Origin: Trueperaceae bacterium
GTDB lineage: Bacteria > Deinococcota > Deinococci > Deinococcales > Trueperaceae
Assembly (NCBI GenBank): GCA_965213925.1
Contig: CBDCAM010000005.1
Span: 1 to 15,909 of the forward strand
Direction of reading: 5' to 3'
DNA length: 15,909 nucleotides
The notes under the pieces are model-generated. The model saw nothing but the letters and a program-made list of their open reading frames with translations. It ran no database searches and had not been told where the DNA came from. The position numbers and the translations under genes were made by a program. This document shows, in pieces, positions 130-15,909 of the stretch (position 1 is the first letter of the stretch; each line of letters opens with the position of its first letter).

Positions 130-186
130 GCCAGTCTATGACATGATTTAGGTGTGAAAGAAACCATTGTCAAAGGACTGGCTTAT
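126..186 (+). promoter_or_regulatory. Fold-back inverted repeat covering transposase RBS/start
   Basis: ATAAGCCAGTC (126-136) is the exact reverse complement of GACTGGCTTAT (176-186), which overlaps the end of the SD and the ATG at 185. Pairing extends imperfectly inward (TATGACATG / CATTGTCAAAG). Confidence 0.65.
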
Positions 187-1004
187 GTATAAGCGTAACG
201 AACTTCAGAAGAAAATCCAAGCCCACCTACCCCTACACGGAGCGCGCACCGCTTTTATAGCGAAATTCGTGATGGCGCTCATCGTGGTGCGAGGCGTAAC
301 GGTGAGCACGGTAGCGAGCGTGCTGAACCCACGGGTGCTAGCGGAGTCAAATGAAAAGCGCATCAAGCGGTTTTTTGGAACGGTCAAACTAGAGGGTGAA
401 GGGTTTGCAAAGTTGATGTTAGCGCTGTTGCCTGTTAAAGATAGCTTAGTGTTGACGCTTGACCGTACGACTTGGGAGCTAGGCAGCGTCTGCATCAATA
501 TTTTAATGTTGGGCGTTGCTTACAAAGGTTTGGCCTTCCCGTTGCTGTGGGTGTTGCTCGACAAAAAGGGCAACAGCGACACGGCAGAGCGTTTGGCACT
601 GGTCGATAGGGTGCTGACGCTCATCAAAGTTGGAAACATCGAGGCTATCGTTGCGGACCGAGAGTTTACGGGCAACGATTGGTTCAAGGGTCTCAAAAAG
701 CGTAAGCTCATTTTTGTGATGCGCGTACGCAACAACACCGGCATCGGCTCGAAAGGGAAAACACGCTCAGCCAAACAACGTTATGACCACCTCAGAGTTC
801 AAGAGGTCTACATCTGTCCCAAGCGCTGCCGCGTCTTCGACTTACACCTCCACATTGCCGTGACCAAAAGCAAAGAAGGTGAAGAACTAGGCCCGACGGG
901 CCGGGCTTTGCCCGTTCTAGCTTGTCGTACTGGTCTGCAATGCTGAACCTGACAAAGCCTTACTACGTTACTCGCGCCGTGGGCAAATTGAAACGCTTTT
1001 CAGC
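185..1004 (+). pseudogene. IS4-family DDE transposase, frameshifted and 3'-truncated
   Basis: ATG at 185 after AAGGA. Catalytic-type motifs LTLDRTTW and IVADREF lie in ORF 167..946. After an insert at ~883-920 the protein continues from 921 in another frame as LVVLVCNAEPDKALLRYSRRGQIETLFS. This is the IS4 Y-x2-R-x3-E signature (usual W replaced by G), and it is cut off before the K. Confidence 0.88.
883..920. repeat. Short palindromic insertion (REP/MITE-like) inside transposase
   Basis: Outer IR AGAAC (883-887)/GTTCT (914-918). CTAG occurs at 887-890 and 917-920. Internal palindromes are GGCCCG-A-CGGGCC (890-902) and CGGGC-TTT-GCCCG (902-914). Removing 34 or 37 nt restores the transposase frame. 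Confidence 0.7.
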
Positions 1005-1471
1005 GTCTCCCGCTCGGTCTCGCTCAAACACCCGTAGGTATCACTATCCGCCGCGTCGATAATGCTCCTACTCTCTTTGAGAACGCGCTCACCCCGGGCG
1101 GTCAGTACCAGCTCGTAATAGCGTCGGTCATGGGTGCTCTTCACGCGCTGCACGTAACCGAGCGCTTCTAAATCGTCTACAAGGCGCACCACGTGGGTGC
1201 GGTCCAAGCCTAGGTTCTGGCTGATGGCGACCTGTGAGCGATGCTCGCTCTCGGCGATGAGCTTCATCACGCCAAGCTGACGCGCGTCGATGTGAAGCGG
1301 CTCCAACATCTCCTCCAGGACGAGCTGCGCCATCTGCGCGACGTAGCTCAGTACGTACCCCGTCTCCGACGCCAGCGTCTCGGAGAGGTCGTGAGAGTTG
1401 AAGTAGAGGGGCGGCGCGGGCACGCGATTCCGTTTAGGCACTGCTCGAGCATCTTTTGAAGCCTCAGACAT
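968..1471 (-). CDS. MarR family transcriptional regulator (last ~8 residues derived from IS antisense strand)
   Basis: wHTH motifs SQVAISQNLGLDRTHVVRLVDDLEALGYVQR and DRR...LTARGE. TAGACT on the minus strand (1477-1482) lies 5 nt before the ATG, suggesting a leaderless promoter. Confidence 0.92.
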   Translation of the reverse strand: MSEASKDARAVPKRNRVPAPPLYFNSHDLSETLASETGYVLSYVAQMAQLVLEEMLEPLHIDARQLGVMKLIAESEHRSQVAISQNLGLDRTHVVRLVDDLEALGYVQRVKSTHDRRYYELVLTARGERVLKESRSIIDAADSDTYGCLSETERETLKSVSICPRRE

Positions 1472-2174
1472 GGGCTAGTCTACACGTCGTGCGCCGAACC
1501 ACTCTCATGCGGGTAGCCCTGCGCAGGTACGCGAGCAAGCGGTGCTGCATTTCAAAGGTCTCCAAAAGCACGTCTCGAAAACCCTTGTCCGTTACCTCGT
1601 CGTCGCGGAAATGTCGGATGGTCAGGTACTGGTTGAGCCGCAGCAGGTGAGTCGCGGGGTGGTCGGTGCTGTAGCCGCGCGGCGCGTTTTTAAGGCTGTC
1701 CTCATCGTTTAGAACGTCAGAAAACACCTTGCGAAAGGCGTCGCTGTCAACGAGCTGCTCGAGTTCCTCCGGCTTGTCATGGATGCACTCGCGCATGGTA
1801 CTTGGCACCTCGCGCTTAGGCGAATGAAGCCCGCCGCCAGCGACGCTCCCGCCGGGCGCGATGTTGAGGTAGTACCCCGGTTCGACCTCCCCTAGAGGCG
1901 CAATGACCGCCATGATGTACGTTTTGAGCGGCGCGGCGTTGTCAGGGTGAAAGCGCGTATCGCGGTAGATGCGGGGCAAGCTCACGACGCTGCCGCCTCC
2001 TAAATCCTTGCGCAGGCGTTCGTCGAAGGGGGCGATATCGACTGCGACACCCCTGATACTCTGCTCGAAGGCGGCTTTCATCGCCTTATAGTCGTCTTTA
2101 CGCTCGTTGAACCAGTCCTTGGTGTTGTTTTGCTCGAGCTGGCGGAAGAACTCGAGCAAGGTCGGGTCGATCAT
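1464..2174 (-). CDS. DUF2461 (TIGR02453) family protein
   Basis: N-terminal FFRQLEQNNTKDWFNERKDDY, plus RIYRDTRF, YYLNIAPGGSVAGGGL and LKNAPRGYSTDHP motifs. SD GAGG lies upstream, and the gene starts 10 nt after the upstream stop. Confidence 0.9.
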   Translation of the reverse strand: MIDPTLLEFFRQLEQNNTKDWFNERKDDYKAMKAAFEQSIRGVAVDIAPFDERLRKDLGGGSVVSLPRIYRDTRFHPDNAAPLKTYIMAVIAPLGEVEPGYYLNIAPGGSVAGGGLHSPKREVPSTMRECIHDKPEELEQLVDSDAFRKVFSDVLNDEDSLKNAPRGYSTDHPATHLLRLNQYLTIRHFRDDEVTDKGFRDVLLETFEMQHRLLAYLRRATRMRVVRRTTCRLAHV

Positions 2175-2184
2175 GCTGCCTCTA

Positions 2185-3462
2185 TCATATTGCGCCTCGG
2201 TCGGTATCTCCCCCGCGTAAGTTCAGCATCTTGTCCATGATGTCTTCCCCGCGTCCAGGTTCACTCCAAGGACAGACCTCGATGCAGATCGCGCAGCTCT
2301 CGTTGGCGACGAAGTAAGGCGCGCAGCGGTCAAAATTGATGAACCACCGCTCCTCACCTCGGACCATCTGTTTGGTTTCGAAGATGGCTTGCGGCGGACA
2401 GTTCGTCGTGCAAATCTGGCAGAACATGCAGAAGTCATCCACGCCGATGTCAATAGGGTGATCTACCTCTAAGGGCATCTCGGTCAGCACCGTCGCTAAG
2501 CGCACGTTGGAGCCGTAGTCTTTGGTGATCATCGAGTTGTGCTTACCAAGCTGCCCTAAGCCCGCTGCAATCGCGATGGGCACGTGTTGCACTTCAGACG
2601 TACCGGGCGCGATGTTCGTACACGCTATTGCCGGATAACCCCGACTGCGGATGTATTCGGCAAGACGGATCGCTGCCAAGCCGACCTTACGGTAAATGCG
2701 AAAGACCTCGGCATGCGTGCGTATCTGGGTCGGGTAGCGCATCTCCTCGCGGTCCATCGGCACAGCGATAGAAATGGCGTACTTAAACGAAGGCTCGAAA
2801 CCGTCGAAGAACCACTCATCTTGAGGCTCGGTGATGCCGACTAGAGCCGCGCCGTGCTCCTTGGCAACCGCTTTGACTCGTCCGCTCATCGCTTTGGGGC
2901 TCGTCACCGTCTCCCGCCGCCTCGCGACCGCCCCGACGCGCCGCCGGTCATCCCAGAACAGACGCACAATGACGCGGGTGACTCGCCAAGATGTGAGTGT
3001 GAGGAGTACCTGGTGCAAGCCGCCCCAAGCGTAGCTAAAATCGAAGAAGAGGTAGTAGGGCCGACGCTTTTCTGTTTCGTCCAGACCGCTTATGACCATA
3101 CCCGAGACGGGCGGTTTGCGGTAGGCAAAAGGGTAGCTGGGCTCCGGGTAGGACGGAAGGGCGACGTCGGGGGACTTGCGGGGCGGCAAGTCGGTTTTAG
3201 GCGACAGGTCCGCGCTGATGTTCGGCAGTGTGTCAAACTGCTGCGTCTCCGCGTCTGGCGGCTTCGGGAGGTCTTCGATCCAGATGGTCTCTCCCCTCGA
3301 GATTTTCCGCCTGAACTGCCACTTTTGCCACTCTCCGACCGTCCAATAGGCGAGTGTTGCCCCGGCGGCAAGCCCGACGCTTCTCAGCATCCTCCCCGCT
3401 ATACGGACGTGCTGAGCGAGCTGTTCGGTACAGGTTCGGGGACGTTCAATCTTGACTGCCAT
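2185..3462 (-). CDS. Reductive dehalogenase-like cobalamin/2x[4Fe-4S] oxidoreductase (paralog 2)
   Basis: GAALVGI, AIAAGLGQLGKH and YGSNVRLATVLTEMPL motifs. Fe-S motifs CMFCQICTTNCP (Cx2Cx2Cx3CP) and C-x9-CAICIEVCPW. SD GAGGAG upstream. Confidence 0.85.
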   Translation of the reverse strand: MAVKIERPRTCTEQLAQHVRIAGRMLRSVGLAAGATLAYWTVGEWQKWQFRRKISRGETIWIEDLPKPPDAETQQFDTLPNISADLSPKTDLPPRKSPDVALPSYPEPSYPFAYRKPPVSGMVISGLDETEKRRPYYLFFDFSYAWGGLHQVLLTLTSWRVTRVIVRLFWDDRRRVGAVARRRETVTSPKAMSGRVKAVAKEHGAALVGITEPQDEWFFDGFEPSFKYAISIAVPMDREEMRYPTQIRTHAEVFRIYRKVGLAAIRLAEYIRSRGYPAIACTNIAPGTSEVQHVPIAIAAGLGQLGKHNSMITKDYGSNVRLATVLTEMPLEVDHPIDIGVDDFCMFCQICTTNCPPQAIFETKQMVRGEERWFINFDRCAPYFVANESCAICIEVCPWSEPGRGEDIMDKMLNLRGGDTDRGAI

Positions 3463-3540
3463 CCATATCTCCTCTAGGTTGGGGCTTTTTACAAAAAGTC
3501 AATACATCTTCGTTACGGTAATGTGACAGGAAAATCACCT

Positions 3541-4809
3541 TCACGTTTCGGCACTCCCGCGGCGGCTGAGCATCTTGTCCATGATGACGTTGCCGCGCCC
3601 CGGTTCACTCCACGGGCAGACCTCGATGCAGATGCCGCACCCCTGGTTGGCTGAGAAGTAGGGGACGCACTGATCGAAGTTGATGAACCACCGCTCCTCA
3701 CCTCGCACCATCTGCTTGGTCTCGAAAATCGCTTGCGGTGGGCAGTTCGTCGTACAGATTTGACAGGACATGCAGAAATCATCCACGCCGATGTCTACGG
3801 GTGTGTCAACTTCTAAAGGTAGGTCGGTCAGCACCGTCGCTAAGCGCACGTTGGAGCCGTAGTCTTTGGTGATAATCGAGCCGTGTTTGCCAAGCTGCCC
3901 CAACCCGGCTTCAACCGCAAGGGGAATGTGTAGCACCTCCGTCGTGCCAGGAGAGATGTTCGTGCTAGCCCTGGCGGGATAGCCTAGGCTGCGGATGTGC
4001 TCGGCGACGTGAATAGCGACGCGCCCCACGTCTTCATAGATGCGGAAGACCTCCGTAAACGCTCGCTCGCTCGGCGTGTAGCGCATCTCCTCGCGGTCCA
4101 TCGGCACAGCGATAGAGATGGTGTACTTGAAGGAGGATTCGAAGCCCTCGAAGTACCACTCGTCGCGCGGCTTGGTGATGCCGACTAGGGCTGCACCTTG
4201 CGCTTTCGCGACCTCTTTGATCTGTGCGCTCATCGCCGCTGTATCGGTAACGGGCTGCTGCTCTCTCGAGACCGCCCCGTCGCGTCGCCCGTTATCTTGG
4301 AAGATACGCATGACCGACCGCGCGACCCTAGGCGGAATCAGGGTGAAGAACACCTGGGTCAGGCCGCCCCAGGCGTAGTCGAATTCGAAGAAGAGGGGGT
4401 GGGGACGGCGCTTCTCGATTTCGTCCAGGCCGCTGATGACCATGCCGGACAGGGGCGGCTTGCGGTAAGCGAAGGGGTAGCGGGGCTCTGGGTAGGACGG
4501 CAGGACGATGTCGTTAGACTTACTCGGCGGCAGGTTTTTTCTAGGGGACAGGTCAGCTCCGATATAGGGTAACTCGTCAAATCGTTGCGTCTCTGCGGAG
4601 GGGGGCTTGGGAAGGTCCTCGATCCAGACAGTTTCGCCTCGAGCGGTTAAGCGCGTCAGGTGCCGCTCCTGCCAACGTTTGAACGTTCGGCTGGCGAGCG
4701 TCACGCCGAGGGCTAAGCCCGCGCTCGTCAATTTGTGCCGCGCGGCGCGGACGTGTTGATAGAGATACTCGACTCGGTTCTTAGGATGTTCAAATTTGGG
4801 GAGATTCAC
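3541..4809 (-). CDS. Reductive dehalogenase-like cobalamin/2x[4Fe-4S] oxidoreductase (paralog 1)
   Basis: GTG start after AAGGA. Motifs AVEAGLGQLGKHG, YGSNVRLATVLTDLPL, CMSCQICTTNCP and C-x9-CGICIEVCPW. Colinear end to end with 2185..3462. Confidence 0.85.
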   Translation of the reverse strand: MNLPKFEHPKNRVEYLYQHVRAARHKLTSAGLALGVTLASRTFKRWQERHLTRLTARGETVWIEDLPKPPSAETQRFDELPYIGADLSPRKNLPPSKSNDIVLPSYPEPRYPFAYRKPPLSGMVISGLDEIEKRRPHPLFFEFDYAWGGLTQVFFTLIPPRVARSVMRIFQDNGRRDGAVSREQQPVTDTAAMSAQIKEVAKAQGAALVGITKPRDEWYFEGFESSFKYTISIAVPMDREEMRYTPSERAFTEVFRIYEDVGRVAIHVAEHIRSLGYPARASTNISPGTTEVLHIPLAVEAGLGQLGKHGSIITKDYGSNVRLATVLTDLPLEVDTPVDIGVDDFCMSCQICTTNCPPQAIFETKQMVRGEERWFINFDQCVPYFSANQGCGICIEVCPWSEPGRGNVIMDKMLSRRGSAET

Positions 4810-4829
4810 GATCAGGTCCTTTCGCGCCC

Positions 4830-6236
4830 TTACACCGCTCGAGCTTCACGCTTCACCATGTTAGGTTCGACCTCCGCCTCCAACATCGCCTCGACGCTGG
4901 AGAACTTCGCACGCCACCGCCGGTTCTGCAAGCCCCCTGCTCTACGCTCCGCCCGGTCGATGCGCCGCCAGCCCGCTGCTGTGACGTAGCGCACGCCCTT
5001 CTCTTCTAAGATGCGGTTCACCGCTTGTGGGTCGGGGTCTTGTGCGAAGGGCAGGGTCGGCAGGTCCTCCAAGAGGTGCCGCACGGTTTCCTCCGCGTCC
5101 GTCTTGTTCGTGCCGATGACGCCCGAGGGTCCGCGCCGCACCCAGCCAGAGGTGTACTCGCCTAGTACGACGTCACCTTCTAAGGTTGTGACACGTCCGC
5201 CTTCATTCGGAATGACGCCGCGCTTATCGTCAAAGGGCACGTTCGGAAGAGGCTGGCTGCGGTAGCCGACCGAGCGCAGCAAGAGGCCGATATCCAAATG
5301 CTCGAATTTGCCCGTGCCAATAGCGGAGAGGCGCTCCCCTTTGGGCTCGAGCCGATTCTGCTCCAACTTGAGCCCTTGCACCCGACTGTCTCCTCGGACT
5401 TCAGTAGGAGAGACGAAGAAGTGGATGTGGGCGTGCTTGTTTGCGCCGGGTTTATGACGCCCCGAGTATTCGGTGAAGAGTTCCACGTTGCGCCGGGTCT
5501 TCTTCGCCTCCAACGCATCTTCAAATGTGCCCTCCTGGTCGGCCTCGAGGTCCGCTGGGTTCACGACGACATCTACACCCGGCAGTTCGCCCACTTCGCG
5601 TAGCTCTTTGGGCGTGAAGTTTGCTTGAGACGGACCGCGCCGCCCTAAAATGTGGACGTCAGTGACGCTCGAGTGTCTAAGCGCATCCACCGCGTAGCCC
5701 GCCATATCGCTCTCGGCGAGCGCGTCGGGGTCTTTGAGGAGCGCCCGTGTCACATCCAGCGCGACGTTGCCCATGCCGATGATGGCGGCGTGCGAGCTAT
5801 CTAATGGTGGATTCAGGTCGGCGTGGTCGGGGTGCGCGTTGTACCAGGCGACGAACTCGGTGGCGGAGAGGCTACCGGGTAGGTCTTCGCCGGGAATGCC
5901 TAAGGATTTGTCGCTACTCGCGCCGACTGTATAGATGACCGCGTCGTAGTGCCGCTTCAACTCGTCATACGTAATGTCCTTGCCAAAACTCACGTTGCCG
6001 AAGTAGCGCACCGCCTCGTGCTTCAAGATGAGGTCGAAGGTGACCGACTTGGACTTCACGACGGGGTGGTCGGGCGCGACGCCGTAGCGGACTAGCCCGT
6101 AGGGACTCGGCAGGCGTTCAAAGAGGTCCACGGACACCTTGCCCCCATTTTTCAGTAGGGCGTGCGTCGCGTAGAAGCCTGCCGGACCTGCGCCGATGAT
6201 CGCGACGCGCAAAAGGCGTGAGGAATGTTTAGACAT
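4830..6236 (-). CDS. fprA: Ferredoxin--NADP+ reductase, FprA / adrenodoxin reductase type
   Basis: FAD-binding GAGPAG, PYGLVRYGVAPDHP, NADPH-binding GMGNVALD and GRRGP, and C-terminal GWVRRGPSGVIGTN. No fused ferredoxin domain. Confidence 0.92.
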   Translation of the reverse strand: MSKHSSRLLRVAIIGAGPAGFYATHALLKNGGKVSVDLFERLPSPYGLVRYGVAPDHPVVKSKSVTFDLILKHEAVRYFGNVSFGKDITYDELKRHYDAVIYTVGASSDKSLGIPGEDLPGSLSATEFVAWYNAHPDHADLNPPLDSSHAAIIGMGNVALDVTRALLKDPDALAESDMAGYAVDALRHSSVTDVHILGRRGPSQANFTPKELREVGELPGVDVVVNPADLEADQEGTFEDALEAKKTRRNVELFTEYSGRHKPGANKHAHIHFFVSPTEVRGDSRVQGLKLEQNRLEPKGERLSAIGTGKFEHLDIGLLLRSVGYRSQPLPNVPFDDKRGVIPNEGGRVTTLEGDVVLGEYTSGWVRRGPSGVIGTNKTDAEETVRHLLEDLPTLPFAQDPDPQAVNRILEEKGVRYVTAAGWRRIDRAERRAGGLQNRRWRAKFSSVEAMLEAEVEPNMVKREARAV

Positions 6237-6248
6237 GGAAACTCTCTT

Positions 6249-6293
6249 TCATCTAAATTTGCTTCTGAGATACGAGTAATTGCGAAGCGCCAC
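6249..6293 (-). other. Possible 14-aa upstream ORF (MALRNYSYLRSKFR) before fprA
   Basis: SD GAGGAG (6300-6305, minus strand) lies 6 nt before GTG 6293. The TGA ends 12 nt before the fprA ATG. Confidence 0.3.
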
Positions 6294-6379
6294 GGTTGTC
6301 TCCTCGAGTTAACAAACAGCAATTCCATTACTCATTGCTACACCACTGATTGCGTCCATTTCTATTCGCATCCGCTCAA

Positions 6380-6407
6380 ACTTTTGCTTGCTGTAGCAAG
6401 CAAAAGT
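6380..6407. promoter_or_regulatory. Perfect 13-bp inverted repeat, candidate operator upstream of the fprA-rdh operon
   Basis: ACTTTTGCTTGCT-GT-AGCAAGCAAAAGT in an AT-rich intergenic region. There is no clear U-tract after the stem on either strand. Confidence 0.55.
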
Positions 6408-6633
6408 GGAAATGCTAAAATAAGTAAAAGGGCGAAAAGGCTTCTTCGTCTAAACTAAGTATATTAGGTGATTATTTCATCTATAGGTATCTTCACTTAC
6501 ATTGTGATAGTGCTTTTGTGAATCTTCCATTTTTGCGTATCGCACAAAGCTCTGGACGTAGCGTCCTTAAACACTTTTATGTGGCGCGCGCGTGTTAATC
6601 GCACAACGGTCCGAGCCCAGGAGCGCTAAGGGG

Positions 6634-7608
6634 TCAGATGCTAATGACGACTTTTCCCCGAGCGTGCCCTTTTTCGAGATACCTGATGGCTTCAGCCGTC
6701 TCACTTAGCGGGTAGGTCCTGTCTATGACAGGGACGACTTTGCCGGTTTCGAGAAGTTCTTTGATGAAAACCAGATCCGTCTGGTTCGGTTTCGCCGCCC
6801 CTATGAGACCGATCTTCTTCCGCCCCCTCCTGGACACCCACGCCCCCAACGACGCGACCTGGAGCAGATGAGCCAGGGTGGTAAAGCCGACGACGACACA
6901 TCTCCCCTGAGGACTTAAGGCACGCGCGTAGTCCGAGACCGAACGGTTCCCCACCGCGTCGAGGATCAGGTCGTACGGCTGCCCGCTTTTGGTGAAGTCC
7001 TCTCTCGTGTAGTCGACAACCCTGTCCGCCCCGACGGAGCGCACCAGCTCCAGATTTCGCGTGCTGCACACGCCGGTGACCTCGGCCCCGAAATGTTTGG
7101 CGAGCTGCACCGCGAAGGTGCCCACCCCGCCAGAGGCGCCGTTGACCAGCACCTGCTGCCCGGACCGAATCCGTCCCTTGTCGCGAAGCCCCTGTAGAGC
7201 GGTGATGGCCGCCACTGGGACCGCCGCCGCCTCTTCAAAGGATAAGTTACTCGGCTTCAGGGCTAAGGTCTCTTCACGAGCACAGACATACTCGGCGAAG
7301 CCGCCCAACCCGCTGCCGCTCACGTCCCCGAACACCTCGTCACCGGGCCTAAACTGTGTCGCCCCGCTGCCGACCGCTTCGACGTGCCCCGCGATGTCCG
7401 CGCCGAGAAACGTGTTCTTCGGCTTGCGGAATCCAAAAACAAGGCGGAACGGGAGCGGCGTACCCCTCATGAAGTGCCAGTCGAGCGGGTTCGCGGCCGC
7501 CGCGTGAACCTTGACCAGGACTTCGTCGTCTTTAGGGGCGGGCTTTTCTACCTCCTCGAGCCGGAGCACTTCGGGGGGTCCGTATTCTGTGTACACCACC
7601 GCTCTCAT
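6634..7608 (-). CDS. NAD(P)-dependent MDR-family oxidoreductase (zinc-independent, quinone-reductase-like)
   Basis: MRAVVYTEYGPPEVL, ANPLDW, GADIAG, NGASGGVG and GHARGKVVI motifs. SD GGAGG upstream. Confidence 0.92.
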   Translation of the reverse strand: MRAVVYTEYGPPEVLRLEEVEKPAPKDDEVLVKVHAAAANPLDWHFMRGTPLPFRLVFGFRKPKNTFLGADIAGHVEAVGSGATQFRPGDEVFGDVSGSGLGGFAEYVCAREETLALKPSNLSFEEAAAVPVAAITALQGLRDKGRIRSGQQVLVNGASGGVGTFAVQLAKHFGAEVTGVCSTRNLELVRSVGADRVVDYTREDFTKSGQPYDLILDAVGNRSVSDYARALSPQGRCVVVGFTTLAHLLQVASLGAWVSRRGRKKIGLIGAAKPNQTDLVFIKELLETGKVVPVIDRTYPLSETAEAIRYLEKGHARGKVVISI

Positions 7609-7657
7609 GGTTTGCCTCCGGGATCATGTACGAGTCGTTGTATGCCTATTCGCCGCA

Positions 7658-8074
7658 CTATAGCGCACAGCGTGACTGAACCGTAAGGAGGGGAGGTGGG
7701 CCCCCTTGCCCGTTCAAAATGACACGAAACAACTCCGGGTCACGCCCCACGACCTCGAAAATGATTAAGGCGGGGTGCGGCACGCCGCTGACCAAGTCCC
7801 GCCTCGAAAATTGCTTGACCTCTTCGAGGATGGTTTCAACCAGCGCGTCGAGCGAGCTGAGGAGCAGCGCGTCCTTGTCATCGTAGTGCAGGTAAAAGGT
7901 CGCCCTTGCAACATCCGCTCGCTCAGCGATTTCGGAGACGCTGATGCTCTCGTAAGGTTTCTCTAATATCAGTTCCATCAGCGCCTCAAAGAGCCGCTTC
8001 TGCGAACGCCGGGTGCGCCTGTCCGGTTTCTTCTCTGAAGAATCGGAGGTGGAATTAGACCCGAAATTAGACAT
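7658..8074 (-). CDS. TetR/AcrR family regulator, C-terminally truncated (probable pseudogene)
   Basis: DRRTRRSQKRL...ISVSEIAERADVARATFYLHYDDKDALL HTH. Only 138 aa from ATG 8074. After FRVILNGQGG the sequence turns into a non-homologous-looking tail (PPPLLTVQSRCAL*). Confidence 0.8.
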   Translation of the reverse strand: MSNFGSNSTSDSSEKKPDRRTRRSQKRLFEALMELILEKPYESISVSEIAERADVARATFYLHYDDKDALLLSSLDALVETILEEVKQFSRRDLVSGVPHPALIIFEVVGRDPELFRVILNGQGGPPPLLTVQSRCAL

Positions 8075-8175
8075 TTTTTCCCTTCTGTCCAAAACTGAAC
8101 ATATCGCCCTATCTGTACTTGACGTTCCTTCCGCCGAAGCTCTAACTTAACATATGTCTTTTAATAGACAAATGT
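8070..8175 (+). promoter_or_regulatory. Divergent promoter/operators between TetR and FAD monooxygenase
   Basis: TTGACG (8119-8124) - 18 nt - TAACTT (8143-8148). Near-palindrome ACATATGTCT-N6-AGACAAATGT (8150-8175). Two ACA-N12-TGT motifs (8070-8089, 8098-8117). SD AGGAGG follows, before ATG 8192. Confidence 0.65.
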
Positions 8176-8191
8176 CAAAGGAGGTAGAACG

Positions 8192-9862
8192 ATGACCACA
8201 AGGAGCCGAACCGACACGCAGGTGAACACGACCGACGTCCTCATCGTCGGCGCAGGTCCGACCGGCCTCACCGCCGCGACGCTCTTGGCGCGTTACGGCG
8301 TGGACTTTCGCATCGTCGATAAAAACGCGACTGCCGCGAAAAAGTCCAAAGCGCTCGGCGTCCAGGCGCGTACGTTGGAGCTGTGGGACAAGTTGGGCAT
8401 GGCTGAAGGCGCAGTGGCGCGCGGACAACCGCTCAGAGCCCTGAATCTCATTACCGAAGGCACCATCGGCAAAGGCGGCAAGCCGTTCATGTCGTTGGGG
8501 CAGGACGGGAAGGACATTTCGCCTTACCCATACCTGCTGATTCACGAGCAGTACAAAACCGAGAAGATGCTCTTGGATGAGTTGGCGACCCAAACGGGGC
8601 CGAAAGGTGCCTACGGTGCCGAGCGCAACACCGAAATCGTGAGCTTAGCGGCTGACTCGAACAGCGTCACCGTGGTCTTACGTCACGAAGACGACCAGCA
8701 GGAGACGGTGCGCGCCCGCTACCTCATCGCGGCGGACGGGGCGAGCAGCTTTGTGCGGAAAACGCTGGGTTTGGAGTTCGACGGCGCGACCTACGCCGAT
8801 CCCCTATTCGTCGCCGACGTGGATATGACTTGGCCCTTGGACCGCGATAAATTTTACGCCCAGGTGCCGCGCCAGGGGATGCTCACCTTCTTCCCGATGC
8901 GCGGCGACGGCTACTCGGGCAGCCGGTACCGCATCATCGGGCGAATCCCCAAAGCCTGGGAAGACAAAGAACTTACCGGGGACGACGTGCAGAGCTTGCT
9001 GAACGAGCACAGCGTCGTGAAGGCCAAGATCAACAGCGCGGGCTGGGTCTCCAAGTATAAAATTCACCGCCGCATGACCAAAGAGTTTCGCGTTGGCCGC
9101 ATCTTTTTAGCGGGTGACGCGGCGCACATCCACAGTCCGGCGGGCGGCCAGGGGATGAACACGGGCATCCAGGACGCTTGGAACCTCGCCTGGAAGCTCG
9201 CGCTCGTGGTGAAAGGTCAGGCGGACGAGAGGTTGCTAGGGAGCTACGAGCCCGAGCGCCTGCCCGTCGCCAAGGCGGTGCTGAACGGCTCGGACAAGGG
9301 TTTCTCCTTTATCGGTTCGCCCAACTATGTGTTCCACCTCTTGCGCAGCGCCATCTTGCCGCGTTTGACCGACCTCACCTCGAACGAGCGCGTGGGCAGG
9401 TTCGTCTTCAAGTTCATCTCGCAGACCTGGATCGGCTACCGCAAGAGCCCAGCGGTGGACGGCGACAGGGACGCGAAGCGTGCGCAGCCGGGCGACCGTG
9501 CGCCTTACGGACACTTCACCTCGGGGGAGAGCATCTTCAACCTTTTACGGGGCGTAGATCATCACTTGCTGCTCTTCGTCAACCGGGGAACTGACGTGGA
9601 AGCGGAGCGCGCGAGGGCTGAGGCGACGCTGAGCCGCTACGGTATCAACACCCAGGTACACGTCATCGGCGCGTCTGAGCACGTTCTACGCGGCGCTTAC
9701 GGGGTGAGCGAAACCACCGCGTTCTTCATCCGTCCCGACGGGCACATCGCATGGCGCGGTGCGGCGAGCTTAGAACGTTTACGGACGTACTTAGACACCT
9801 TTTATACGCAGCGCAAAGCGGAACAGATCACGGAGCCAACCTCTCAGAGCGTCCCTGTTTAA
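8192..9862 (+). CDS. FAD-dependent monooxygenase (PheA/TfdB/PcpB/aromatic-ring hydroxylase class)
   Basis: GAGPTGL, AADGASS and FLAGDAAHIHSPAGGQGMNTGIQDAWNLAWKL motifs. C-terminal thioredoxin-like domain (PGDRAP...FIRPDGHIAWRG). Confidence 0.93.
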   Translation: MTTRSRTDTQVNTTDVLIVGAGPTGLTAATLLARYGVDFRIVDKNATAAKKSKALGVQARTLELWDKLGMAEGAVARGQPLRALNLITEGTIGKGGKPFMSLGQDGKDISPYPYLLIHEQYKTEKMLLDELATQTGPKGAYGAERNTEIVSLAADSNSVTVVLRHEDDQQETVRARYLIAADGASSFVRKTLGLEFDGATYADPLFVADVDMTWPLDRDKFYAQVPRQGMLTFFPMRGDGYSGSRYRIIGRIPKAWEDKELTGDDVQSLLNEHSVVKAKINSAGWVSKYKIHRRMTKEFRVGRIFLAGDAAHIHSPAGGQGMNTGIQDAWNLAWKLALVVKGQADERLLGSYEPERLPVAKAVLNGSDKGFSFIGSPNYVFHLLRSAILPRLTDLTSNERVGRFVFKFISQTWIGYRKSPAVDGDRDAKRAQPGDRAPYGHFTSGESIFNLLRGVDHHLLLFVNRGTDVEAERARAEATLSRYGINTQVHVIGASEHVLRGAYGVSETTAFFIRPDGHIAWRGAASLERLRTYLDTFYTQRKAEQITEPTSQSVPV

Positions 9863-9895
9863 GGGTCGCATCAAACCCCGAGAAAGGAACACCCT

Positions 9896-10381
9896 ATGAA
9901 CGCCCTTACGCCCTCCCTCATCGTCGCCATCTTCTCTTTCGGAACCGCCATCTTCTACGCTCTCTCCTGTATCGAATGGTCCACACTGAGGCTGGCGCTG
10001 AATCAGCACACGCAAACGGTGAAAAACGCGGACGTACGCTTCGTTCACGCAGCCTTAAAGCGCCTCATCCCCCTCTTGCCGCCCTCGAACGGGTTCGTCA
10101 TCCTCTTCGGAACCGCAGCGCTGATCTACCAGTGTTTCCTGCGCGGTTGGGACGGGCCGTCTATCCTCATCCTCACCTTTTACTGGCTCGTTACGGGCTA
10201 CCTGATCACCTTCGGGCGGATCGCGGCGGCGGTCATGGACGTGCGGAAGACGGACAGCCAGGGCGACATTGGGGACGTCAGACGCGGCGTCAGCCGCCTG
10301 ATCGTGCGGCATCACATCGGCTTGTCGGCGAACTTGGGCGTGGTGGGGCTCGAGTTCGCGCTGGTGTCGGGCTGGTTGTGA
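9896..10381 (+). CDS. Multi-TM membrane protein, possibly DUF1772/anthrone-oxygenase-like
   Basis: 161 aa with about four hydrophobic segments. SD AAGGA upstream. Directly downstream of the monooxygenase. The family call is tentative. Confidence 0.65.
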   Translation: MNALTPSLIVAIFSFGTAIFYALSCIEWSTLRLALNQHTQTVKNADVRFVHAALKRLIPLLPPSNGFVILFGTAALIYQCFLRGWDGPSILILTFYWLVTGYLITFGRIAAAVMDVRKTDSQGDIGDVRRGVSRLIVRHHIGLSANLGVVGLEFALVSGWL

Positions 10382-10692
10382 CCTTTTGCCTAAAAGTACG
10401 CGGCGGCAAACAGCGGCGTATGGGTCTCATAGAACTGCGCAGCTTGACATAGATATTTAAGTTTGCTTCCTAAGCTTGCTTTAGGTTTGATACGGCAAGA
10501 CGGAAACTGTACTCCGAAGACTCGAGCCCGAAGAGGAGACACCCACGTCAGAGCGTCTTGTCAGAATGCTGCTTAGTAGTGGCGACGAACTGACCTGAAC
10601 ATCATATCGAGTGAAGAGGCTCGGGCGCTCACCGCTCACGTGCGTACCGACATTCGCTCAACCCAGATTGACTTCTTGAAAGGAGCCCCTAA

Positions 10693-11970: not shown

Positions 11971-12033
11971 ATGTTTGACCAAGTTGCTCTCATTACAGGT
12001 ATAAGCCGAAGACACTTTTTAGGAGGACGATGA
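11971..12033 (+). pseudogene. 20-aa SDR N-terminal remnant (MFDQVALITGISRRHFLGGR)
   Basis: SD AGGAGG (11961-11966) and ATG 11971. VALITGISR resembles an SDR beta1/TG motif and the downstream VALVTGASH. The stop overlaps ATG 12030. Confidence 0.6.
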
Positions 12034-12035
12034 TA

Positions 12036-14030
12036 ATGGATGCTCTAAGCAGGTCCACACACAAGCGACTCGGTGTTTTTGGGGTCGTATTAGCAGCCTT
12101 AGTCCTTAGCGGGGCGGCGTTCGTAAAAGCGCAAGGGGGTACGGCTCAACCCTTTGAGATTAATGTCTCCGACGAGGTGCTGAGCGCCCTTCAGCAACGC
12201 CTAGCCGAGACCCGCTGGCCCGATGAGGTTGAAGGCGCAGGTTGGACTTACGGCACAAACTTAGCCTATCTTCAAGAGCTTGTTTCGTACTGGCAGGACG
12301 GGTTCGACTGGCGTGCTCAGGAGGTGCGCATCAACGCCTTCAACAACTTCATGGCCGACGTTGACGGAACGAACATCCACTTCATCCATGAACTCGGTGA
12401 GGGTGAGAATGCTCTGCCCGTGCTCGTCCTGCACGGCTGGCCGAGTTCGTTTGTGCAGATGCTCGACCTCATCCCGCTCCTCACGACGCCTGACGAAGGC
12501 GGTTTATCCTTCGACGTGGTGGTGCCCTCGCTCGTGGGCTATGGGTTCTCGGAGATTCCTAACGAACCCGGCATGAGCGTCGCCAAAATGGCCGAGCTGT
12601 TCCACAAACTCATGACCGAAACCCTGGGTTATGAGCAGTACGCCGTGCGAGGTAGCGACTTGGGCGCGGGTGTCATCCAACAAATGGCGCTGCTCTACCC
12701 GGACGAGATTATCGGCGTCCACTTGTCGGGCACGAACCCCTTTGTAGCGGAAGTGCCCGACGATTTGACCGAAGCCGAGCAGGAGTTCGTCGGGAACGCG
12801 CAGGCCTGGTACGCCCAGGAGATGGCGTACGCGATGGAGCAAAGTTCCTATCCGCAGACCTTGGCCTACGGTTTGAACGATTCTCCCGCGGGACTCGCCT
12901 CGTGGATTATCGAGAAGTTCCGTGCCTGGAGCGACAACGATGGAGACTTAGAAAGCGCGTTTACTAAAGACGAGTTGCTGACCAATCTAACCATCTACTG
13001 GGCAACTCAAACTATCAACCCGTCCATGCGCCTGTACTACGAGACGGCTCGAGACCCCGGACAATTCGGGCGGGTTGAAGTGCCCACCGGAATGCTCATG
13101 ACCGACAAGGACATGTTCCCGACACCCCGTGAGTGGGCCGAGCGCTCCTACAACGTCGTCCACTGGACCCGGATTAGCGTAGGCGGGCATTTCCTCGAGT
13201 GGGAAGAGCCTGAACTCGTTGCAGAGGACATGCGGGCGTTCTTTATATCGCTACAGCCATACCCCCCATCTTCTTGGAAAGACTTCACATTTCAACGAAA
13301 GGAGCATGACATGGCAGACGTTGCCTTAGTGACAGGCGCAAGCCACGGGATTGGCTTTGAGGTGGTTCGTCAACTTGCCCAAAAAGGGATGACGGTCATC
13401 CTCAGCGCTCGAGGCGAGGACAAAGGACGGGCGGCGGCTCAAAAGCTAGCAGGCGAAGGGCTCGAGGTAAGTTTTCTTCCCCTTGACGTTTCCGACGCAA
13501 AGAGCGTGAAAGAAGCGACTCACAAGGTCGAACGCGAGCACGGCAAGCTCGATGTGTTAATCAACAACGCCGCCGCCTATGCGGACTGGTCGGAAACGGC
13601 GAGCGGCGCAGACCTGGAGCATTCGCGGGAGGTGATGAACACCAACCTCTTCGGTCCTTGGCGCACCGTTCAGGCGTTTTTGCCGCTTCTCAAAAGGAGC
13701 GACCACGCGCGCATCGTGAACGTCGCAAGTGGTGCGGGTTCGCATGGGGAAACGCAGTTTGGCCTTGCCACAGGACCGACCACCGCCAGCTACGGCGTCT
13801 CCAAAGCCGCCCTCAACGCGCTTACCGTGAAGTTCGCGGTTGAACTCAAAGAAGCGGGTATTCTAGTGAACTCGGTAGACCCTGGCTTGACTGCGACCGC
13901 ACCCGGCATGGAAGAGATGGGCGCGCGGCCGGTGCCTGAAGGTGCGGCGAGCGTGGTGTGGGCGGCGATGCTGGAAAAGGGCGGGCCCACAGGCGGCTTC
14001 TACAGAGACGGTGAGCCGCTACCCTGGTAG
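12036..14030 (+). CDS. Signal peptide + epoxide hydrolase (EHN + alpha/beta hydrolase) fused in frame to an SDR oxidoreductase
   Basis: PFEINVSDEVLSALQQRLAETRWP, FDWRAQE, HGWP oxyanion motif, GSDLGA nucleophile and GGHF His, followed by the SDR from 13311. ATG 12036 is better spaced from SD AGGAGG (12021-12026) than ATG 12030. Confidence 0.85.
   Translation: MDALSRSTHKRLGVFGVVLAALVLSGAAFVKAQGGTAQPFEINVSDEVLSALQQRLAETRWPDEVEGAGWTYGTNLAYLQELVSYWQDGFDWRAQEVRINAFNNFMADVDGTNIHFIHELGEGENALPVLVLHGWPSSFVQMLDLIPLLTTPDEGGLSFDVVVPSLVGYGFSEIPNEPGMSVAKMAELFHKLMTETLGYEQYAVRGSDLGAGVIQQMALLYPDEIIGVHLSGTNPFVAEVPDDLTEAEQEFVGNAQAWYAQEMAYAMEQSSYPQTLAYGLNDSPAGLASWIIEKFRAWSDNDGDLESAFTKDELLTNLTIYWATQTINPSMRLYYETARDPGQFGRVEVPTGMLMTDKDMFPTPREWAERSYNVVHWTRISVGGHFLEWEEPELVAEDMRAFFISLQPYPPSSWKDFTFQRKEHDMADVALVTGASHGIGFEVVRQLAQKGMTVILSARGEDKGRAAAQKLAGEGLEVSFLPLDVSDAKSVKEATHKVEREHGKLDVLINNAAAYADWSETASGADLEHSREVMNTNLFGPWRTVQAFLPLLKRSDHARIVNVASGAGSHGETQFGLATGPTTASYGVSKAALNALTVKFAVELKEAGILVNSVDPGLTATAPGMEEMGARPVPEGAASVVWAAMLEKGGPTGGFYRDGEPLPW
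13311..14030 (+). CDS. SDR family NAD(P)-dependent oxidoreductase (carbonyl-reductase-like), with its own start inside the fusion
   Basis: SD AAGGAG 6-7 nt before ATG 13311. Motifs TGASHGIG, NNAA, catalytic YGVSK and GPTGGFYRDGEPLPW. Confidence 0.8.
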   Translation: MADVALVTGASHGIGFEVVRQLAQKGMTVILSARGEDKGRAAAQKLAGEGLEVSFLPLDVSDAKSVKEATHKVEREHGKLDVLINNAAAYADWSETASGADLEHSREVMNTNLFGPWRTVQAFLPLLKRSDHARIVNVASGAGSHGETQFGLATGPTTASYGVSKAALNALTVKFAVELKEAGILVNSVDPGLTATAPGMEEMGARPVPEGAASVVWAAMLEKGGPTGGFYRDGEPLPW

Positions 14031-14771: not shown

Positions 14772-15093
14772 GTGCGTCTCGCTCCGCTCGCTCTAGGTCT
14801 GGCCGTGCTCACGGCCTCCCTGGGTGCTGTGGATTTACCTACCAGCACCCACCCTAGAACTCTGGTACCGCGCCGCTCGAGCCGAGGGTGTTCACCTCTC
14901 CTTGTCGGCCTACCTATACGGACTCACCGCACCCGCCGCGTACTCCTCTCGCACAGAGACCTACGTGGTGGTTGGTGGTCAGACACTTCAACTCAACCTG
15001 TGGGAACCCGCTCAAGCCTTCGTCAGCCCCCGCCCCACCGTACACTGGCACATGGACCCCCCTCACCCGGACTGCGGTGTGTGCGTTAACTGA
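14772..15093 (+). pseudogene. Small membrane/exported protein with C-terminal His/CxxC tail, apparently frameshifted near 14818-14820
   Basis: TAAGCT (14760-14765) - 6 nt - GTG 14772 gives MRLAPLALGLAVLTAS. Removing one C joins it to WVLWIYLPAP...HWHMDPPHPDCGVCVN* (ORF 14824..15093). Confidence 0.4.
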
Positions 15094-15198: not shown

Positions 15199-15909
15199 AT
15201 GTCTCAGCTTCTCAGTCCGTTACCCGCTCGAGGTACTCTCGTCACGCTGGGCGGCCTAGCACTTAAAGGCAGCGACTTCGACCGGACCAAGCCGCTCTTG
15301 CTCCTGTGTTACTTGTGTTTAGAAGGCCCCAAGGAACGCCGCCATTTGGCCGAACTCTTCTGGCAAAACGCTGCCGACCCCTTGGCGAGCCTCGCCACCG
15401 AACTCTCGAGGCTCAAGCGTCACCTCGGCAACGTCGTCGATACCGACGCAAGTCACACTAAAGCGCTCCTACAAACTGACGCCCAAGTTTTCTTGCGCGC
15501 GCTCGAGCGGCAAGACTTAAACCAAGCTGCGGCTGTTTACGAAGGTGGTTTTCTCAAGGGAGTAGCGTTAAAGAACGTCTCGCAAGAACTCGAGGCGTGG
15601 GTGCAAAGCACGCGCGAATTCTTGGCGGGGCGAGCTCGCGACGTGTTGCTCGGCTTGGGCGAGGCGGCCGCCCGCCGTAACGACTTTGCCAAGGCGGCCG
15701 GGCGCGCTCACGAAGCTTACGCACAGGTGCAGACCGCCGCGTTAGAACCCGAGCAGTTGCGGAGGGCGTACACCCTTCTGGTCGCGGACGACCACCCTTG
15801 GGCAGCGACGCTCAGAGAGGAAGCGCGCGACCTGGGTTTGTCCCTGGACGTCGGCAAGGTCGAAGCGCGCAAGCGTTTACGCCCGGCGCAGGGTGACGCT
15901 CTCTCGATT
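15199..15909 (+). CDS. SARP/AfsR-type transcriptional regulator (wHTH + BTAD), 3'-partial
   Basis: SD AGGAG and ATG 15199; open to the window end. Reads LVTLGGLAL...KPLLLLCYLCLEGPKERRHLAELFW...SLATELSRLK...TDAQVF...YEGGFL...ELEAWVQSTRE. Absent from the ORF track because no stop is in the window. Confidence 0.85.
   Translation, partial: MSQLLSPLPARGTLVTLGGLALKGSDFDRTKPLLLLCYLCLEGPKERRHLAELFWQNAADPLASLATELSRLKRHLGNVVDTDASHTKALLQTDAQVFLRALERQDLNQAAAVYEGGFLKGVALKNVSQELEAWVQSTREFLAGRARDVLLGLGEAAARRNDFAKAAGRAHEAYAQVQTAALEPEQLRRAYTLLVADDHPWAATLREEARDLGLSLDVGKVEARKRLRPAQGDALSI

Follow-up and report, generated by a model that had tools for sequence, protein, structure and literature searches.

A five-gene module of a Trueperaceae bacterium joins two RdhA-like enzymes to an FprA-type flavoprotein: a candidate NADPH-driven corrinoid reductase system

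We describe a five-gene module from a Trueperaceae bacterium (assembly GCA_965213925.1) in which two tandem relatives of the reductive dehalogenase RdhA are encoded directly behind a flavoprotein of the FprA/adrenodoxin reductase type. The module lies on the minus strand of contig CBDCAM010000005.1, which was analyzed over its complete length of 15,909 bp (hereafter, the window) and which is contig C6 of a 4.75-Mb genome (G000) of six contigs that is 96.9% complete. We lean, if only slightly, toward reading the module as an operon under MarR control whose products form a corrinoid reductase system that faces the cytoplasm and is driven by NADPH. The pairing of these enzymes with FprA is restricted to one genus, yet it is backed by independent fusions of RdhA-like and FprA proteins found in public sequence collections.

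The open reading frame (ORF) list places the five genes head to tail on the minus strand between positions 968 and 6236. They are fprA (4830..6236, 468 aa), rdh-like 1 (3541..4809, 422 aa, GTG start; product Rdh1), rdh-like 2 (2185..3462, 425 aa; product Rdh2), a gene for a DUF2461/TIGR02453 protein (1464..2174, 236 aa) and, last, marR (968..1471, 167 aa). Gaps of 20, 78 and 10 nt separate the first four genes, and an 8-nt overlap of the DUF2461 gene with marR follows, exactly the order and spacing that a first-pass annotation of this DNA had given. Rdh1 is a predicted non-exported corrinoid/2x[4Fe-4S] reductase, and Rdh2 is a tandem paralog that carries the same motifs and is 70% identical to it. 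The product of marR was assigned to the MarR family from matches to PF12802 (36.3 bits) and PF01047 (32.7 bits). No ORF resembling rdhB or a ferredoxin could be read in the module, where the gaps are too short to hold one, or in the 397-nt spacer upstream of fprA, as the first-pass annotation had also noted.

Four lines of evidence agree in grouping Rdh1 and Rdh2 with RdhA within the superfamily and not with QueG, as had been proposed. Among NCBIfam hidden Markov models (HMMs), the top family for both was TIGR02486 (RDH), with 140.3 bits for Rdh1 and 136.3 bits for Rdh2 against a cut-off of 160.35. The QueG model TIGR00276, with its cut-off of 200, gave only 62.2 bits for Rdh1 and 55.1 bits for Rdh2; of its 337 positions, only 128-244 (Rdh1) and 128-202 (Rdh2) were matched, which is the central third, and the C-terminal extension is missing. 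The Pfam Dehalogenase model PF13486, which the first-pass annotation had named as a check, gave no match to either protein at E<=0.01; Pfam detects a ferredoxin-like domain only. In a PDB sequence search with Rdh1, NpRdhA (3.5e-28) and PceA (1.7e-27) came well ahead of QueG (8e-9). An AlphaFold2 model of Rdh1, built from 26 family sequences, reached a pLDDT of 89.1 and a pTM of 0.91, and Foldseek searches with this model returned two PceAs and NpRdhA as best matches (E ~1e-16, TMq 0.5-0.6), with QueG at ~1e-8 and TMq 0.35.

Phylogeny gave the same answer. A maximum likelihood tree of 52 rows was constructed from 33 family sequences (including all six paralogs of G000), 10 RdhAs bearing a twin-arginine translocation (Tat) signal, 6 Tat-less RdhA-like proteins of Chloroflexota and 3 true QueGs. 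The 33 family rows form a single clade, with a support of 97 by the Shimodaira-Hasegawa-like approximate likelihood ratio test (SH-aLRT), which lies on the RdhA side of the tree, separate from the 10 Tat-bearing RdhAs. The branch that leads to QueG has a support of 100 and a length of 1.22, and the family does not cluster with bona fide QueG; such clustering would have spoken against the original proposal. The Rdh1 and Rdh2 types represent separate lineages within the family, each an older clade.

The sequence motifs of the two enzymes are those expected of the superfamily. Both carry the segment AGLGQLGKH, which corresponds to the AGLG-x3-(K/R) cobalamin-contact segment reported in the first-pass annotation, and both carry a first iron-sulfur motif (CMSCQICTTNCP in one protein of the pair and CMFCQICTTNCP in the other; CxxCxxCxxxCP type) followed by the short-spaced C-x9-C-x2-C-x3-CP motif that had likewise been reported. 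The cluster cysteines of Rdh1 are C346/349/352/356 and C381/391/394/398. Judged by these motifs and by the AlphaFold2 and Foldseek results, the enzymes are predicted to combine the corrinoid-type core fold and the 2x[4Fe-4S] ferredoxin-like domain that define the superfamily. The earlier statement that both proteins lack the VDT motif of QueG is literally wrong for Rdh1, in which the tripeptide V334-D335-T336 is present.

The active site is conserved in part. Tyr258 of Rdh1 aligns to PceA Y246 and NpRdhA Y426, and Arg322 aligns to PceA R305 and NpRdhA K488; in the K488Q variant (6ZY0), that column holds a glutamine. We take Y246 and R305 to be the catalytic pair of PceA. Both Tyr258 and Arg322 are invariant in 26/26 family sequences, and the cluster cysteines are conserved. 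According to excerpts of PMC10463259, the named key residues of NpRdhA are Y426, K488 and R552. The position of R552 is held in the family by an invariant phenylalanine (F385), and NpRdhA S422 and M423 are replaced by V254 and F255. The alignment to NpRdhA is limited to its residues 352-572 (91.5 bits), the N-terminal repeat scoring 8.3 bits, and the window enzymes fall outside the catabolic NpRdhA/BhbA/JtRdhA class, which is marked by a length of about 700 aa or more, a vestigial duplicated cobalamin-binding domain and/or a C-terminal reductase resembling phthalate dioxygenase reductase (PDOR-like), and the substrate triad Y426/K488/R552.

Neither are these enzymes of the respiratory type, for which a twin-arginine signal and an adjacent rdhB are diagnostic. 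No twin arginine could be read at the N-terminus of Rdh1 or Rdh2, as had been claimed, whereas all 10 bona fide RdhAs start with signals of the SRR(D/E)F(M/L)K type (e.g., SRRDFMK), and there is no small membrane-protein ORF in the module. A hydrophobic helix, on which the first-pass annotation was silent, spans approximately residues 22-44; it is weak in the window pair (19-residue Kyte-Doolittle maxima of 0.68 and 0.99) and strong in many relatives (1.5-2.0). An uncleaved Tat signal-anchor in the style of Rieske proteins was considered for this helix and dropped, because family members do not share the twin arginine.

The distance from QueG bears on one alternative, namely that the Rdh-like proteins replace a missing epoxyqueuosine reductase. 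The G000 genome encodes Tgt (471 bits) and a QueA-like ORF (139+22 bits), yet profile searches of it found neither a QueG above cut-off nor a QueH, and the QueG model matched nothing in it but the six Rdh-like genes, which is what gave the idea its appeal. However, QueG is also absent from all 18 other genomes of the host family (0/18, against 12/12 in sister families), 15 of which have no match to the QueG model whatsoever. Three of these relatives (G001, G005 and G012) retain a QueA-like gene with no QueG-model match, and QueG loss is therefore independent of the Rdh-like genes. In addition, a family member stands alongside a true QueG (304-367 bits) in 3/5 other, unrelated genomes, and six MarR-regulated copies would be ill-suited to a housekeeping tRNA enzyme. 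Together with the partial model match and the fully supported split from QueG in the tree, these observations already largely refute replacement of QueG, and we consider it extremely improbable.

The product of fprA matches M. tuberculosis FprA (1LQT) with 376.7 bits over residues 10-452 and bovine adrenodoxin reductase (1CJC) with 331 bits, and also matches Pyr_redox_2 and NAD_binding_8, which places it in the FprA/adrenodoxin reductase family as a predicted FAD- and NADPH-binding flavoprotein. G000 contains four FprA genes, of which three adjoin pairs of Rdh-like genes and one stands alone. The other two module FprAs are 88% and 71% identical to that of the window, the lone FprA only 51%. 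In the sister species G002, each of two modules has its FprA and there is one lone FprA besides; G001, of the same genus, has a lone FprA only and neither an Rdh-like nor a DUF2461 gene. Within this genus, the lone, housekeeping FprA of each genome is 51-54% identical to the window FprA, extra FprA paralogs are confined to genomes with Rdh-like genes, and FprA copy number tracks module number. The window FprA is, on these comparisons, a dedicated paralog, distinct from the housekeeping copy of the genome.

An FprA tree of 44 rows is divided by a split with an SH-aLRT support of 100. On one side are the five module FprAs, five fused FprA domains and 11 others; on the opposite side are the housekeeping FprAs of Deinococcota, including that of G000, and a ferredoxin::FprA fusion. 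The FprAs P0167-P0176 are 68-75% identical to the window FprA. Equal contig sizes of the paired entries P0173/P0019 (5067 bp), P0175/P0015 (4,020,199 bp) and P0164/P0127 (35,658 bp) suggest that an FprA gene lies beside an Rdh-like gene in these cases as well.

The fused domains come from natural RdhA-like::FprA fusions, at least five of which are public (four clusters at 50% identity plus P0222). Two of them, P0180 (799 aa) and P0222 (809 aa), were found by searching with the window FprA. Their C-terminal 450 residues are an FprA 58-60% identical to that of the window, and the N-terminal 330 residues form an RdhA-like core (28-37% identity to residues 120-420 of Rdh1), complete with the AGLG segment, both iron-sulfur motifs, the tyrosine and the arginine. 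When P0180 was searched exhaustively with HMMER against 1.84 billion cluster representatives, four clusters of full-length fusions (P0180, P0282, P0283 and P0284) emerged, along with two that are partial. Among stand-alone FprAs, the window's own cluster matches P0180 best in that search, with 561.8 bits and 61% identity; the runner-up, P0287, has 459 bits. The enzyme tree groups the fused cores with two stand-alone relatives in a clade (support 100) whose sister group is the window family, at moderate support (83). Fusions of roughly 550 aa (P0315, P0357, P0373, P0384, P0394, P0409 and P0412) align to P0180 from the iron-sulfur region onward.

In the RdhA-like::FprA fusions, the 2x[4Fe-4S] domain stands directly N-terminal to FprA, with no additional ferredoxin domain. 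P0315, a 2x[4Fe-4S]-type ferredoxin joined to FprA, has the same order of domains. Such ferredoxin::FprA fusions, which are presumably FprB-like, differ in having no corrinoid domain and an FprA part on the housekeeping side of the tree; the shared domain order suggests that FAD would dock to the clusters in the same way in both kinds of protein. There is good comparative evidence that the FprA lineage of the window serves RdhA-like enzymes and can do so with no ferredoxin in between. The first-pass annotation had proposed a stand-alone FprA donor that possibly acts directly; the tracking of modules by FprA paralogs and the FprA lineage shared with the fusions mark FprA as a dedicated partner, and the fusions favor the direct transfer.

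These fusions also bear on how electrons would reach the enzymes. FprA and adrenodoxin reductase are classical reductases of ferredoxin or adrenodoxin, and a three-component chain is conceivable in which FprA reduces a ferredoxin encoded elsewhere, which in turn reduces the Rdh-like enzymes, as proposed for the NpRdhA gene cluster. Against such a chain, there is no ferredoxin gene in or beside any of the five modules known from the genus; in the four modules outside the window, no ferredoxin domain was detected among the flanking ORFs that are unmatched to window proteins. The fusions moreover link the RdhA-like iron-sulfur domain straight to FprA. We therefore regard the involvement of a separate ferredoxin as unlikely, and direct transfer from FprA to the enzymes' own clusters is the route retained below.

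The association of fprA with Rdh-like genes was followed through the genus and beyond it. G000 holds three modules: that of the window, a 5.6-kb duplicate at C1:849717-855292, and a diverged module (57-71%) at C1:2966846-2971387 with the order rdh-rdh-fprA-marR and no DUF2461 gene. G002 has two, ordered fprA-rdh-DUF2461-marR and fprA-rdh-rdh-marR. Thus, fprA with one or two rdh genes and marR occurs in 5/5 modules of the genus, DUF2461 in 3/5, and marR is last in all five; the genus has two gene orders, fprA-rdh-rdh and rdh-rdh-fprA. The wider search covered 80 loci with family members outside the window's own genome. Only 1/80, from a Trueperaceae metagenome-assembled genome (L001; 89% identity), has fprA near the Rdh-like gene, and 4/80 (L001, L002, L012 and L029, with four different phylum labels) have DUF2461 nearby. 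A search of metagenome contigs with Rdh1 found only two distant loci (37-38% identity), neither with fprA or DUF2461 nearby. On the question whether the fprA-rdh-DUF2461 arrangement recurs in other genomes, the fprA linkage holds within the genus and is all but absent elsewhere, and DUF2461 proved optional.

With linkage in only one genus among the genomes searched, the neighborhood might be an accident of a mobile, duplicated cassette, with FprA functionally unlinked to the Rdh-like genes; the contig is short, ends in an IS4 transposase fragment, and carries a module that is duplicated within the genome. We think this very improbable. The linkage persists in the rearranged and diverged third module, FprA copy number follows module number, and the same two protein lineages have been fused independently.

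The duplication itself covers positions 1001-6578 of the window and shows 91.5% nucleotide identity over 5583 bp to its counterpart on C1. This identity is a mosaic: about 96-99% through the greater part of marR-DUF2461-rdh2 (1200-3600), where a single 300-nt bin drops to 91%, about 99% at the 5' end of fprA (92% in the promoter spacer), and only 79-88% across rdh1 and most of fprA, which suggests recombination or gene conversion between the copies. The third module (L118; C1:2962000-2975000) is situated within a Bmp/PnrA-type ABC transporter operon, with an ATPase and two permeases upstream and a substrate-binding protein downstream.

The enzyme family to which Rdh1 and Rdh2 belong is large and widespread. 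Homologs of about 420 aa, at 45-60% identity, occur in cyanobacteria (Leptolyngbya, Nodosilinea, Synechococcus and Cyanobium), Chloroflexota, Myxococcota, Bacteroidota and Rubrobacteraceae. At least 553 of 568 candidate stretches from one-genome-per-species contigs encode a relative. Existing annotation at best reads '4Fe-4S dicluster' or 'reductive dehalogenase domain-containing' protein; the family is not obscure, and it is partly annotated. Pfam neighbors were examined at 18/80 loci, picked because the match extends into the N-terminal region. Of these 18, 11 have a TetR-family gene no more than three genes away, and WYL regulators occur in 2, LysR in 2 and MarR in 1; the usual setting is a single regulator-guarded gene, commonly adjacent to TetR.

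Neighbors were also clustered across 78 loci, with one annotated representative per cluster. Among the relatives with shorter N-termini (L015-L080), recurrent neighbors are amide- or peptide-processing genes and transporters. Of the 78 loci, hydantoinase B occurs in 7, hydantoinase A in 5, amidohydrolase in 5, S58 peptidase in 5, amidase in 4, a TonB receptor in 7 and an SNF symporter in 6. In eight loci an M81/MlrC peptidase ORF overlaps the rdh-like frame (e.g., L077:8180-10588), a possible fusion. These counts are rough, since simple ORF calling yields shadow ORFs in GC-rich loci; the largest neighbor 'cluster' has no Pfam match and lies opposite the rdh-like gene, as a shadow ORF would.

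A chemistry other than dehalogenation is an alternative. Under it, FprA would still be the donor, and the enzymes would reduce a different functional group, for instance an epoxide or some other leaving group, on a natural metabolite or a stress-derived compound. The family is common in aerobes and phototrophs without known organohalide metabolism, it scores below the RDH model cut-off and lacks the substrate-binding residues of NpRdhA, and its recurrent neighbors (amidase, hydantoinase A/B, S58/M81 peptidases and transporters) are not those of halo-aromatic pathways. QueG, by its PDB titles, shows that the same fold can reduce an epoxide. On the other side, the PceA-type Tyr/Arg pair is invariant, the nearest sequences and structures are all dehalogenases, and the window neighbors are of a xenobiotic or aromatic type (an FAD aromatic-ring hydroxylase, an epoxide hydrolase fused to a short-chain dehydrogenase, and a quinone reductase). 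Such a non-dehalogenating chemistry is, in our estimation, somewhat unlikely.

Our preferred reading, with an organohalide as the most likely substrate, can be set out as a chain of steps. The dedicated FprA paralog would oxidize NADPH on its FAD and hand single electrons directly to the C-terminal 2x[4Fe-4S] domain of both RdhA-like paralogs, with no separate ferredoxin. The [4Fe-4S] clusters would in turn reduce cobalamin, which would act by reductive elimination on a substrate that is small and probably either hydrophobic or aromatic. As in PceA, the pair Tyr258 and Arg322 would donate protons. MarR probably keeps the operon repressed and releases it when the substrate or a similar compound appears, and the DUF2461 protein would be a dispensable accessory. 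The host is aerobic, as had been supposed, because G000 contains three heme-copper oxidase subunit I genes. Cobalamin is probably imported; G000 encodes two proteins with B12-binding domains.

Several observations weigh against this reading. Both enzymes fall under the TIGR02486 cut-off and have no match to PF13486. The replacement of NpRdhA R552, S422 and M423 implies a substrate other than the halohydroxybenzoates of the NpRdhA type, and one that may be no organohalide at all. A purely soluble, FprA-driven model leaves the hydrophobic helix at the N-terminus unexplained. The fusions sit in a sister clade and not in the window's own family, and the absence of fprA from 79/80 loci means that most family members must use another donor. 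No marker of de novo B12 synthesis was found in G000, in which CbiJ is absent, and the single cobalamin riboswitch match in that genome is sub-threshold at 24 bits. Finally, the assignment of the five genes to one operon depends on a co-transcription that is putative. Of the first-pass reading as a whole, the core, Tat-less RdhA-like enzymes paired with a dedicated FprA in an aerobic host, is supported; a wide fprA synteny, DUF2461 as a constant component and an obscure enzyme family have found weaker support or none.

Co-transcription is suggested by the spacing of the genes, between which a terminator scan found no convincing internal terminator. Terminator-like sites in the region did not exceed chance (8 found, 7.3 expected), and a sigma-70 scan found no minus-strand site upstream of fprA, with 2 sites in the region against 1.7 expected. 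A GC-rich hairpin at 891..906 on the minus strand, about 60 nt past the marR stop, is a possible operon terminator, though a weak candidate in view of this chance-level count. The candidate regulatory region (6237..6578, minus strand) lies within the duplicated unit, with 92-99% identity between the copies, and contains a perfect palindrome of 26 bp (12+2+12) at 6381-6406 that recurs at C1:855095-855120, upstream of the second module. We propose this palindrome as a candidate MarR operator. A ATAGATGA(A/T)A-type motif at 6471-6485, also upstream of fprA, has counterparts ahead of the third module (G000:C1 ~2966700-2966800) in the form of two inverted repeats (ATAGATG-N7-CATCTAT), and the motif and these repeats may represent a shared MarR operator. 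Control by a MarR-type protein would fit a ligand-induced detoxification or catabolic operon.

The DUF2461 protein was identified by PF09365 (164.4 bits, cut-off 22.8) and TIGR02453 (156.3 bits, cut-off 105.4), both well passed. Its AlphaFold2 model (pLDDT 86.6) was matched by VIA-align to DUF1054 (YktB)-like structures, 2A8E of B. subtilis (Z 13.6) and 3MQZ (Z 11.4), with all other structural matches at Z 7 or below. There was no PDB sequence match, Foldseek against the PDB returned none at E<=0.001, and the ESM Atlas returned DUF2461 clusters only. The gene is also found in relatives without an Rdh-like gene (G007, G010, G011, G018, G022, G026 and G029). DUF2461 is adjacent in the window, as had been noted in proposing it as part of the system; its occurrence in only 3/5 modules and 4/80 loci, and in genomes without Rdh-like genes, makes it an optional accessory. 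A role as a tetrapyrrole carrier was considered and dropped, its sole basis being Z scores of 4-5 to bilin reductases and coproporphyrinogen oxidase, which are within noise. In a literature search, DUF2461 came up in four papers, and in none of them does it stand in the title or abstract.

The closest known systems are the cytoplasmic RdhAs. As outlined in excerpts of PMC10463259, these come in two arrangements: one has a PDOR-like FMN/[2Fe-2S] reductase as a fused part, and the other, that of NpRdhA, has genes for a ferredoxin reductase and two ferredoxins in the same cluster. These partners of NpRdhA did not function in vitro, and only the PDOR-fused enzymes work well. JtRdhA, NpRdhA and BhbA resemble the window enzymes in being cytoplasmic and Tat-less, in lacking RdhB, in their cobalamin and 2x[4Fe-4S] core fold and catalytic tyrosine, in their aerobic hosts, and, as predicted for the window pair, in having NADPH as ultimate donor via a fused or nearby flavoprotein reductase. 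They differ in the reductase, which in the window is an FprA-type FAD protein with neither a 2Fe-2S center nor a ferredoxin. The window enzymes, at about 420 aa, also lack the vestigial second cobalamin-binding domain of NpRdhA, do not keep R552/S422/M423, and form a separate clade. A full-text literature search returned no paper that joins 'reductive dehalogenase' with FprA, adrenodoxin reductase or DUF2461. The pairing is a further form of the known theme of a cytoplasmic RdhA with an NADPH reductase.

Respiratory RdhAs (PceA of Sulfurospirillum multivorans and Desulfitobacterium, and those of Dehalococcoidia) share with the window pair a length of about 420-500 aa, the core fold, the equivalents of Tyr246/Arg305, both iron-sulfur motifs and the AGLG segment. 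The window pair differs by lacking the twin arginine and rdhB, by its aerobic host, by a predicted NADPH/FprA supply in place of quinol or hydrogenase, and by its separate clade. Tat-less putative RdhAs with N-terminal helices, termed hybrid or transmembrane, resemble the window enzymes in having a hydrophobic N-terminal helix and neither Tat signal nor rdhB, and in being known from genomes only (Atashgahi 2019, PMC6797604; excerpts of PMC12219181). As portrayed there, they mostly have three transmembrane helices that take the place of RdhB, with an EXE motif, occur in anaerobic Deltaproteobacteria and Bacteroidetes, and are presumed to be respiratory; the window enzymes have one weak helix, aerobic or phototrophic hosts as a family, and an NADPH flavoprotein partner, a distinction drawn from the published descriptions. 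With QueG the window enzymes have in common the superfamily fold, the AGLG cobalamin-contact segment and a pair of [4Fe-4S] clusters; they are set apart from it by the far lower model scores, the partial match, the distance in the tree and the coexistence with family members noted above.

A broader proposition, which we offer tentatively and rate as somewhat less likely than not, is that FprA/adrenodoxin-reductase-type proteins constitute a second, ferredoxin-independent class of cognate reductase for oxygen-tolerant RdhA-like enzymes, either encoded adjacently or fused C-terminally ('self-sufficient'), and that a large aerobic clade (cyanobacteria, Chloroflexota, Myxococcota and Trueperaceae) acts on a natural substrate class not yet tied to B12 chemistry, as opposed to pollutant respiration. 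Work on oxygen-tolerant reductive dehalogenases has been hampered by the lack of cognate, specific electron delivery, as stated in an excerpt of PMC10463259. If the proposition were true, a two-protein NADPH-FprA-RdhA system, or a single-chain fusion, would be a compact drive for B12-dependent reductions in air, useful to enzymologists and bioremediation engineers. The MarR inducer and the FprA partner would likewise provide a first handle on the function of the very large RdhA-like clade in aerobes and cyanobacteria.

The remainder of the window contains genes of several kinds. Immediately upstream of fprA (6634-9862) are a PIG3-type quinone oxidoreductase gene on the same strand, a TetR gene and a divergent gene for a 556-aa FAD aromatic-ring hydroxylase; the quinone oxidoreductase is also found, at 92% identity, within ~2 kb of a G002 module. 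At 12030-14030 on the plus strand, adjoining a divergent TetR gene, is a 666-aa fusion of an epoxide hydrolase (EHN and alpha/beta hydrolase) with a short-chain dehydrogenase, of which only the dehydrogenase half has a paralog on C1. An IS4-family transposase fragment (167-946, plus strand; DDE_Tnp_1; NF033591 at 123 bits, under its cut-off) abuts the marR end of the module. A search of the window against Rfam gave no match, and the plus-strand ORFs at 15199-15909, 9751-10452 and 14772-15089 have no Pfam or NCBIfam match. The first of these, which is open at its 3' end, has four paralogs on C1 (42-91% identity), and the other genes of this short stand-alone contig have paralogs of 72-94% identity scattered over C1.

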